From assembly GCF_011045215.1 (NCBI RefSeq), contig NZ_CP049201.1: a DNA stretch of 64,000 bases. One strand, written 5' to 3'. This DNA comes from Escherichia coli. GTDB taxonomy: Bacteria > Pseudomonadota > Gammaproteobacteria > Enterobacterales > Enterobacteriaceae. The notes under the pieces are model-generated. The model was given only the letters and a program-made list of their open reading frames with translations, was not told where the DNA came from and did no database searches. Position 1 is the stretch's first letter; each line of letters begins with the position of its first letter. Positions 781 through 1,569 of the stretch are shown here, one piece after another. The translations under genes and the position numbers were made by a program.

Positions 781-1569
781 ATGGCAGATGAAGGGATGAA
801 CAGGGACTTTTTGTTTAATTCGTTGACAGCAACAGTCATAAGAGAAAGCAACAATTCACATATGGGGCAGTTTATGAAAACTATCTTCATAGCAGAGCCT
901 GTCGTGACGGCAGGTAACAGTAACAGGCTGATTGCGGTGGAGATTCTGAGCCGATTTTATTCTGTTAACGGAAAACAACTTCCTACCGTGAAAACGCTGA
1001 ATATGTTTACAGCAGAGATGAAAATTGATTTGCTGGAATTACAGATAAGAAAAATAATAAGTAAAGCTTCTTTTTTTAGTAAGCATAATATACTGTGTTC
1101 CCTTAACGTCGATTATGATACATGTCAGTATATATACAGAAATAAAAATATTCAGGATATAATAAAGTCATATGATTTTATTGTTCTTGAAATTTCTGAA
1201 ACATACCCGGTCATAAAGGCTGATGATGCAATAATTCCTTTTCTCATTAATCTGTCAGAACATATCTGGCTGGATGATTTAGGGAGTGGTAACAGTACAA
1301 TACATACGTTGATAAGAAATAAATTCCAGGCAGTGAAACTTGACAAAAATTTTTTTCAAATACATAGTATGAAACCGCATTTTGCTGCATTAATAGACAA
1401 TATAAAAAGATTATGCCCTCTGGTTATTGCCGAGGGTGTTGAAAACAAGAATTATCTGCATGCTGCTTCAGGTGCTGGTTTATGGGGCGTTCAGGGATAT
1501 TATTTTCCATCAGTACCGCTTGAGGATATTCATCAGATAAAGTTGGATTTTTCTGAGAACATCAGCTGA
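781..1569 (+). CDS. EAL-domain protein, putative c-di-GMP phosphodiesterase (stand-alone EAL); true start may be an internal Met near 862-874
   Basis: EAL-family motifs visible in translation: AVEIL, LEISE, DDLGSGNS, KLDK, AEGVEN, GVQGYYF. Confidence 0.65.
   Translation: MADEGMNRDFLFNSLTATVIRESNNSHMGQFMKTIFIAEPVVTAGNSNRLIAVEILSRFYSVNGKQLPTVKTLNMFTAEMKIDLLELQIRKIISKASFFSKHNILCSLNVDYDTCQYIYRNKNIQDIIKSYDFIVLEISETYPVIKADDAIIPFLINLSEHIWLDDLGSGNSTIHTLIRNKFQAVKLDKNFFQIHSMKPHFAALIDNIKRLCPLVIAEGVENKNYLHAASGAGLWGVQGYYFPSVPLEDIHQIKLDFSENIS

Follow-up and report, generated by a model that had tools for sequence, protein, structure and literature searches.

Organization of the EAL gene

The 64,000-nucleotide stretch of DNA analyzed here (contig NZ_CP049201.1 of assembly GCF_011045215.1, hereafter the window) belongs to an Escherichia coli chromosome, as thousands of genomes match its frd/epmA stretch with 99.9% identity. 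Near its first position, a gene for a protein with an EAL domain is located on the plus strand. The longest open reading frame (ORF) of this gene runs from ATG to stop codon at positions 781–1569 and encodes 262 amino acids plus the stop (RefSeq annotation WP_250848377.1). The conserved EAL-only core, a coding sequence of 231 amino acids starting with MKTIFIAEP, covers positions 874–1569 of the same strand (GenBank annotation QIF16326.1). The identical protein is already deposited in both forms, named only "EAL domain-containing protein". Its residue pattern and its modeled fold suggest that it is probably an active phosphodiesterase (PDE) for cyclic di-GMP (c-di-GMP), which belongs to the stand-alone EAL subclass and is encoded in an AraC–EAL cassette on a tRNA-Phe island.

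The EAL domain (Pfam PF00563) is the sole domain of the protein and was matched by residues 39–242 of the 262-amino-acid form with 71.9 bits (E 6.5e-20; gathering cut-off 31.3 bits), covering profile positions 18–233 of 236. The best homologs were found with E 1e-129. The ratio of nonsynonymous to synonymous substitution rates (dN/dS) of the gene was 0.14–0.28 in the comparison with two 96–98% identical copies; with a 67% identical paralog, the ratio was 0.22. No catalytic residue was affected by the substitutions in these comparisons. Because the gene lies in a region with a G+C content of only about 33%, has homologs with E-values down to 1e-129, and displays a dN/dS of 0.14–0.28, positions 781–1569 represent a real gene under purifying selection and not a chance ORF. 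The gene is rare: a comparison at the megablast level with 5,426 complete E. coli genomes showed it in only three of them.

Two start codons come into consideration. In favor of ATG 874, all homologs outside the 90% identity cluster of the protein start at the residue aligned with M32, the DNA homology to the paralogs begins exactly at this codon, and the annotation of the C5 chromosome by the prokaryotic genome annotation pipeline (PGAP) gives 231 amino acids. In favor of ATG 781, the GGAGG-ATG context at this position aligns with the Shine–Dalgarno sequence and ATG of a paralog, and every allele of the comparison retains an open in-frame extension that begins with ATG. In the allele of the C5 chromosome (positions of about 9166–9262 of the corresponding locus, aligned to 781–874 of the window), a 4-nucleotide insertion (AGGG) after ATGGCAGATGA breaks the frame from 781, which likewise favors ATG 874, and a different ATG restores an in-frame N-terminal extension (MKGGMNRDF...). 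Judged from these comparisons, translation may start at ATG 874 or at ATG 781, as the evidence conflicts; the argument for catalysis is unaffected by this choice.

Conservation of the active site

The EAL protein was aligned with MAFFT to the active PdeH of E. coli K-12, the EAL domain of PdeL/YahA, and the degenerate proteins YdiV and STM1697. All metal-binding and catalytic positions were located at the canonical columns and were identical to those of PdeH and PdeL, which bears out the preliminary description of this locus, according to which all EAL signature positions (the Glu of EIL, ExxE, DD, the Lys, EGVE, and QG) are conserved. In the following, residue numbers refer to the 262-amino-acid form, with those of the 231-amino-acid form in brackets; all motifs are encoded on the plus strand. 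The ExLxR motif EILSR (positions 940–954) provides the metal-binding Glu and the Arg that binds the phosphate of c-di-GMP, E54 and R58 (E23, R27). The conserved Asn of SLNVD, a Mg2+ ligand, is N109 (N78; positions 1105–1107), and the ExxE motif EISE (positions 1189–1200) comprises E137 and E140 (E106, E109). The metal-binding DD pair, D165 and D166 (D134, D135), is followed by loop 6 in the sequence DDLGSGNST (positions 1273–1299), a loop of the stand-alone EAL type. The catalytic Lys is K186 (K155), which together with the Asp forms the KLD of KLDK (positions 1336–1344). The EGVE motif (positions 1432–1443) contributes the general-base and metal-binding Glu residues E218 and E221 (E187, E190), and the QG motif (positions 1492–1497) corresponds to Q238 and G239 (Q207, G208).

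Ten conserved EAL residues are essential, eight of which are gone in YdiV (PMC3510510). Out of 11 positions scored in our alignment, the EAL protein kept all 11, STM1697 seven, and YdiV four. The protein was additionally scored, together with PdeH, according to the residue scheme given in Table 1 of Spurbeck et al. 2012 (PMC3484386). It read EILR / ERDD / SE / ENEEDKEQ and departed from the consensus only by Q to E and T to S exchanges; PdeH (ELLV / QVDA / VE / ENEEDKEQ) showed more departures, though it is a proven enzyme. Within the substrate-binding set, the Arg of ExLxR, the Asp of DD, and the Asp of KxD were present. The Pfam EAL scores were 111.7 bits for PdeH, 76.1 for the protein P0064, 71.9 for the EAL protein of the window, 64.8 for SfaY, 33.2 for YdiV, and 24.5 for STM1697.

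The conservation extends to the relatives of the protein. In a set of 119 aligned full-length sequences, consisting of the EAL protein and its closest database hits (32–57% identity, including prophage homologs from other genera), 114 kept all ten core residues, and the five exceptions include a frameshifted allele. For comparison, 79 stand-alone EAL sequences were compiled, namely the 50%-identity representatives nearest to the EAL protein, the protein itself, and four reference proteins. The nine metal-binding and catalytic residues were kept in only 49 of these, and about 38% of the representatives were degenerate. Since degeneration is frequent in the stand-alone EAL subclass and absent from the clade of the EAL protein, an intact active site is not the default and looks selected; this suggests that selection acts on catalysis itself or, at a minimum, on the binding of metal and substrate. 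The earlier proposal of a probably active PDE, as opposed to a degenerate YdiV-like protein, is thus the best reading of the sequence, considering the full residue set, the conservation in 114 of 119 sequences, and the Pfam score of 71.9 bits versus 33 and 24.5 bits for the two degenerate proteins.

Relationship to other EAL-only proteins

In a neighbor-joining tree, the EAL protein was placed in a clade with 100% bootstrap support, which contains accessory proteins of E. coli and is separate from STM1697, YdiV, PdeH, and SfaY. Two groups of relatives belong to this clade, about 55% identical (53–57%) proteins of plasmids and P1-like phage-plasmids, and about 43% identical proteins encoded beside aah-aidA. 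The deep branching order among PdeH, YdiV, SfaY, STM1697, and the clade of the EAL protein had low bootstrap support. The best NCBIfam match was the PdeH (YhjH) equivalog NF008617, with 84.3 bits and therefore below its cut-off of 190. Orthology to PdeH, SfaY, MrkJ, YdiV, or STM1697 was considered and is ruled out by identities of 23–32% and by the tree. According to its placement, the protein is an uncharacterized, horizontally acquired member of an accessory EAL-only clade of E. coli that resides on islands, plasmids, and P1-like phage-plasmids. The AlphaFold model of the protein showed a confident EAL fold (predicted local distance difference test score, pLDDT, 93.6).

EAL-only homologs of 224 amino acids were found in Klebsiella, Enterobacter, and Cronobacter. 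They are 32–36% identical to the EAL protein, prophage-borne, and intact in all catalytic residues. In Klebsiella and relatives (three loci, positions 5001–5675), the gene is located just upstream of the terminase (GpA) and portal genes. These prophage homologs look like phage cargo genes. The 55% identical paralog of the P1-like phage-plasmids is found in four phage records (e.g., OP279344.1, 3552–4214, and OQ595196.1, 11314–11976); one annotation reads "ydiV putative anti-FlhC2FlhD4 factor", the others call it hypothetical, and it matches PHROG 32988, a family without assigned function, with 294 bits.

The AraC–EAL cassette

Divergently oriented to the EAL gene, a gene for a YdeO-like AraC-family regulator is located on the minus strand at positions 3–590 (135 bits against the YdeO model). 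It is cut by the edge of the window, so that only its first 196 codons are visible. The near-identical island context was reached via a variant of the EAL protein that differs in three residues (P0124); in these islands (L019 and L020), which are 99% identical to positions 1–1841 of the window, the regulator is complete with 246 amino acids. The divergent pairing was also found for the 55% identical plasmid paralog, where the AraC gene is frameshifted in pHFQ1, and the YdeO-like gene is the only neighbor conserved with the EAL clade. On this comparative basis, the AraC gene is a conserved partner of the EAL gene, and it may control EAL expression.

The two genes are separated by an AT-rich intergenic and presumably regulatory region (positions 591–873, up to the EAL core). 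A permissive Rfam scan of positions 1–12500 detected only the tRNA-Phe; neither a c-di-GMP riboswitch nor any other RNA element precedes the EAL gene. A G+C-rich hairpin on the plus strand (positions 1592–1607), 23 nucleotides past the stop codon, is terminator-like with a weak T tract and belongs to the conserved module. As a whole, a 1.54-kb block (positions 116–1654, plus strand) consisting of the 5' part of the AraC gene, the intergenic region, the EAL gene, and the hairpin is 96% identical to E. coli RM8082 and C5, in which it is flanked by unrelated sequence.

The genomic island and adjacent adhesin loci

The island carrying the EAL gene and its neighbors is bounded by a tRNA-Phe gene (positions 11423–11498, minus strand), which lies next to an integrase gene. 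The island backbone (positions 7042–11498) includes genes for a UvrD-like helicase (7042–8622), a protein with TraI-domain-annotated relatives (8534–10180), and a tyrosine integrase (10238–11230), and many E. coli genomes have islands with 94–96% identity to this block. Between the autotransporter gene described below and the helicase gene, a second AraC-type regulator of 118 amino acids is encoded on the minus strand (6365–6721). It resembles RamA, SoxS, and MarA; its score with the RamA model was 155.6 bits and did not reach the cut-off of 180. In the core-chromosome portion of the window, a Guanidine-II (mini-ykkC) riboswitch was matched (25673–25719, plus strand; 49.3 bits, gathering cut-off 32), a known element unrelated to the EAL gene.

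Convergently to the EAL gene and 1.4 kb apart from it, an intact AIDA-I-type autotransporter of 850 amino acids is encoded on the minus strand (positions 2997–5549), which contains an autotransporter beta-domain as well as AC_1 and Pertactin domains; it is a neighbor and not a demonstrated partner. The two genes are separated by a UidC-like porin pseudogene, of which two ORF fragments remain (1804–2277 and 2317–2538, together 1804–2538, plus strand). A deletion junction was located at about position 1841, where 4,071 bp are missing in comparison to a near-identical island (L019, 11062–15132). The deleted segment corresponds to a uidA/uidB/uidC-like cluster, namely a gene for a glucuronidase-like protein of glycoside hydrolase family 2 (GH2), a major facilitator superfamily (MFS) transporter gene, and the 5' part of the UidC-like porin gene. 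In L019 and L020, the GH2 gene, the MFS gene, and the full porin gene are situated between the EAL and the autotransporter gene. Close relatives of the autotransporter (97% identical in IBS28, 94% on a C311 plasmid) have no EAL neighbor and are annotated as truncated pseudogenes. Because the 4,071-bp deletion brought the two genes close together, and because the autotransporter relatives lack an EAL neighbor, the adjacency is recent and accidental. A functional link between the EAL protein and the autotransporter was considered as well; as a conserved linkage, it is ruled out by the 4-kb glucuronide-utilization-like cluster between the genes in near-identical islands and by the EAL-free relatives.

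The preliminary description had pointed out that stand-alone EAL genes on islands often accompany adhesin or fimbrial loci and switch them with motility, and had seen the autotransporter next door as fitting this pattern. This interpretation is only partly supported: the adjacency to the autotransporter results from a deletion, but members of the clade do recur beside a fimbrial operon and beside aah-aidA. The EAL gene of RM8082 and C5 is located upstream of a gene for a PapB/FocB-family regulator, and on plasmid A of C5 it precedes a complete chaperone–usher operon. The 43% identical paralog (P0013; L016, 4054–6752) lies between two genes for Rob-like AraC/GyrI regulators on a few E. coli plasmids and adjoins both aah-aidA, encoding the AIDA-I heptosyltransferase and adhesin, and a second autotransporter gene; most AIDA-I plasmids are without this trio. 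The idea that EAL genes of this clade travel with adhesin loci hence has support from gene order, with SfaY and MrkJ as precedents.

Evaluation of alternative functions

Several observations weigh against a catalytic function of the EAL protein. One group of them concerns the active site and its surroundings. The clade is uncharacterized, and we infer enzymatic activity from the sequence. A review states, without naming which, that plasmid-borne EAL-only proteins of E. coli are catalytically inactive. The N-terminal QP motif is EP in the protein and in all 118 close homologs; the active PdeH itself deviates at two of the four positions of the substrate-binding set. Furthermore, the canonical loop 6 sequence DFG(T/A)GYSS is replaced by DLGSGNST, and a degenerate loop 6 can abolish activity despite intact catalytic residues (PMC10333796). 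The loop of the EAL protein, however, conforms to a stand-alone EAL type, D(L/F)G(S/T/A)G-x-(A/S)(N/T), which it has in common with PdeH (DDFGTGMAN) and SfaY (DDFGSGNAG). Because the active PdeH and the probably active SfaY have the same loop type, the deviation is, as far as the sequences tell, not evidence of inactivity.

Alternatively, the protein could be a receptor or "trigger" protein, which binds c-di-GMP with poor turnover and exerts its effect by protein–protein or protein–DNA interaction, following the logic of LapD, FimX, or PdeR. Non-canonical loops can reduce activity, the ExLxR motif as a determinant of c-di-GMP binding is intact, and the protein is a bare EAL domain with no sensory domain that could regulate an enzyme. 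Known EAL receptors, however, have lost catalytic residues, all of which are kept in the EAL protein and its clade, and PdeH is a fully active stand-alone enzyme even though its loop 6 is similar and the Arg of ExLxR is missing from it. We therefore regard a receptor function as improbable.

A second group of opposing observations concerns the overall similarity of the protein. The closest solved relatives by sequence are STM1697 (5hxg, E 1e-31) and YdiV (3tlq, 2e-18), followed at a distance by YahA (1e-7). In a Foldseek search with the AlphaFold model, the inactive FlhD binders YdiV and STM1697 also ranked first, with template modeling (TM) scores of 0.85 and 0.83, respectively; the active EAL enzymes YahA, RocR, and PdeA reached 0.72–0.78. 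As YdiV and STM1697 are the nearest solved relatives by both sequence and fold, a FlhD-binding role has to be taken into account. As an anti-FlhD4C2 factor of the STM1697/YdiV type, the protein would bind FlhD and shut off flagellar class II transcription without hydrolysis of c-di-GMP, and motility would decrease.

The residues of STM1697 in contact with FlhD are V115, L116, L136, V147, F160, K167, L172, L173, K175, H176, and Y180 (PMC5622320). F160 and L173, which matter for FlhD binding according to mutagenesis (PMC5622320), are identical in the EAL protein, as are K167 and L136. In the same study, EAL-only proteins of E. coli, Klebsiella, Enterobacter, and Cronobacter were treated as STM1697 homologs in which these residues are conserved (PMC5622320), and the name given to the 55% identical paralog in one phage record, mentioned above, likewise refers to an anti-FlhC2FlhD4 factor. 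These four, however, are the only identical residues among the 11 contacts. V147 is replaced by Ile, V115, L116, and L172 differ, and the polar contacts are changed from K175 to Asp (a charge reversal), from H176 to Asn, and from Y180 to Leu. PdeL and PdeH likewise possess F160 and L173 (or Ile); hence these residues mark the fold, not the FlhD interface. Of the key FlhD-binding residues of YdiV (F155, F168, F181, and A184), two are conserved; F155 is Ile, and F181 falls into an alignment gap, as the YdiV-specific insertion of helix alpha-8 that carries it is absent. Taken by itself, this mapping speaks neither for nor against FlhD binding. Pure protein binding would not explain the strict retention of metal-binding and catalytic residues that are lost in the proven FlhD binders, and the protein belongs to its own clade with 100% bootstrap support, apart from STM1697 and YdiV. 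A function solely as an anti-FlhD4C2 factor thus appears unlikely.

The remaining opposing observations relate to expression and maintenance of the gene. A consensus sigma-70 promoter was not found on the plus strand of positions 591–873, and over the promoter scan as a whole, the number of sites did not exceed that in shuffled sequence. Several alleles in the 90% cluster are defective. A frameshift after DNIK, common to P0001 and P0126, removes EGVE and QG, and P0001 additionally carries a DD to DN exchange. P0123 stops at 112 amino acids, and positions 12180–12938 of L002 were listed with these decaying alleles. As several alleles are frameshifted or truncated, the EAL gene is dispensable in some hosts. 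Together with the rarity of the gene in E. coli, the many pseudogenes and deletions of the surrounding island, and the likely silencing of DNA with 33% G+C, these alleles would fit a silent or decaying passenger gene, carried by a mosaic island and without function in this host. The allele of the window, however, is full length and without any defect, dN/dS is 0.14–0.28 with the catalytic residues untouched by substitutions, and the promoter region, the gene, and the hairpin have stayed together as one conserved block in spite of differing flanks. We consider it doubtful, therefore, that the gene is a mere passenger.

Proposed function and significance

As an active PDE, the EAL protein would cleave c-di-GMP specifically and in a Mg2+/Mn2+-dependent reaction to pGpG. 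It belongs to the same enterobacterial EAL-only subclass as PdeH, YdiV, STM1697, SfaY, and MrkJ, within an accessory E. coli clade in which the whole active site has been kept. Its expression would lower the c-di-GMP level, which may favor motility via release of the YcgR brake and may reduce matrix production and adhesion. The gene travels as a two-gene cassette with the divergent YdeO-like AraC regulator, and this regulator, together with silencing of the DNA of 33% G+C, would probably set when the EAL gene is expressed. The direction of the phenotype, the control by the AraC neighbor, and the silencing are plausible assumptions derived from these features.

The EAL protein could also be bifunctional, i.e., an active PDE that in addition binds FlhD4C2 via an STM1697-type surface, although this appears to be a rather unlikely combination. 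If it were realized, a single small mobile gene would couple the second-messenger level to the activity of the flagellar master regulator, and the cassette with the AraC partner, spread by islands, plasmids, phage-plasmids, and prophages, would reprogram the motility/adhesion switch of the host. The protein would then represent an evolutionary intermediate between PdeH-like enzymes and the degenerate regulators of the YdiV/STM1697 type.

Relatives of the protein are annotated inconsistently as "EAL domain-containing protein", as "putative anti-FlhC2FlhD4 factor", or with "unknown function". Knowledge of the mode of action of the clade would show whether adhesin-carrying mobile elements bring their own c-di-GMP switch or flagellar switch. 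It would also refine the annotation of several hundred plasmid and prophage genes, while the current understanding would not be overturned.

Comparison with characterized EAL-only proteins

Among the stand-alone EAL proteins of enterobacteria, true enzymes (PdeH, MrkJ, and probably SfaY) stand opposite to degenerate FlhD4C2 binders (YdiV and STM1697), with opposite effects on motility. The mobile clade described here is nearest to the degenerate regulators in overall sequence and fold, yet it possesses a complete active site.

Within the clade, the EAL-only proteins of plasmids and phage-plasmids (e.g., WP_000452096.1) form a sister group with 100% bootstrap support. They are 53–57% identical to the EAL protein and agree with it in the catalytic set, and a YdeO-like AraC gene is again the divergent neighbor. 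Also uncharacterized, they differ in their length of 226–229 amino acids, without the N-terminal extension ORF, and in their location on plasmids or phage-plasmids instead of a tRNA-Phe island.

STM1697 of Salmonella (PDB 5hxg), an anti-FlhD4C2 factor, shares 32% identity, the same length, and co-linear N- and C-termini with the EAL protein. It has His in place of the Arg of ExLxR, Gln at the first position of ExxE, and Gly at the first positions of DD and EGVE, whereas all these positions are intact in the EAL protein. STM1697 neither binds nor cleaves c-di-GMP (PMC5622320). YdiV/RflP (STM1344; PDB 3tlq and 4es4) is likewise a stand-alone EAL protein with a similar loop 6 tail (GNLGAGNST), but it is only 26% identical and differs by the alpha-8 insertion with F181 and by F155, as outlined above.

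SfaY/PdeY (c1246) of uropathogenic E. coli and MrkJ of Klebsiella are accessory EAL-only proteins encoded beside adhesin operons, with intact metal sites and a DFGSGN-type loop 6. Deletion of sfaY raises biofilm formation, and SfaY is classed as an active PDE; for MrkJ, PDE activity has been demonstrated. With 26% (SfaY of CFT073) and about 27% (MrkJ) identity to the EAL protein, both belong to a different clade. Their genes sit in or next to the sfa/foc or mrk operons, whereas the window is without a fimbrial operon.

PdeH (YhjH) of E. coli and Salmonella, finally, a stand-alone EAL PDE dedicated to motility, also consists of a single EAL domain with about 230–255 amino acids and the full ENEEDKEQ set, and its loop 6 is of the same type (DDFGTGMAN versus DDLGSGNST). 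The PdeH of K-12 is 25% identical to the EAL protein. PdeH lacks the Arg of ExLxR that is present in the EAL protein, and the latter has EP instead of QP. Whereas PdeH is encoded by a core gene of the flagellar regulon, the EAL protein of the window is encoded by an island gene paired with an AraC regulator.

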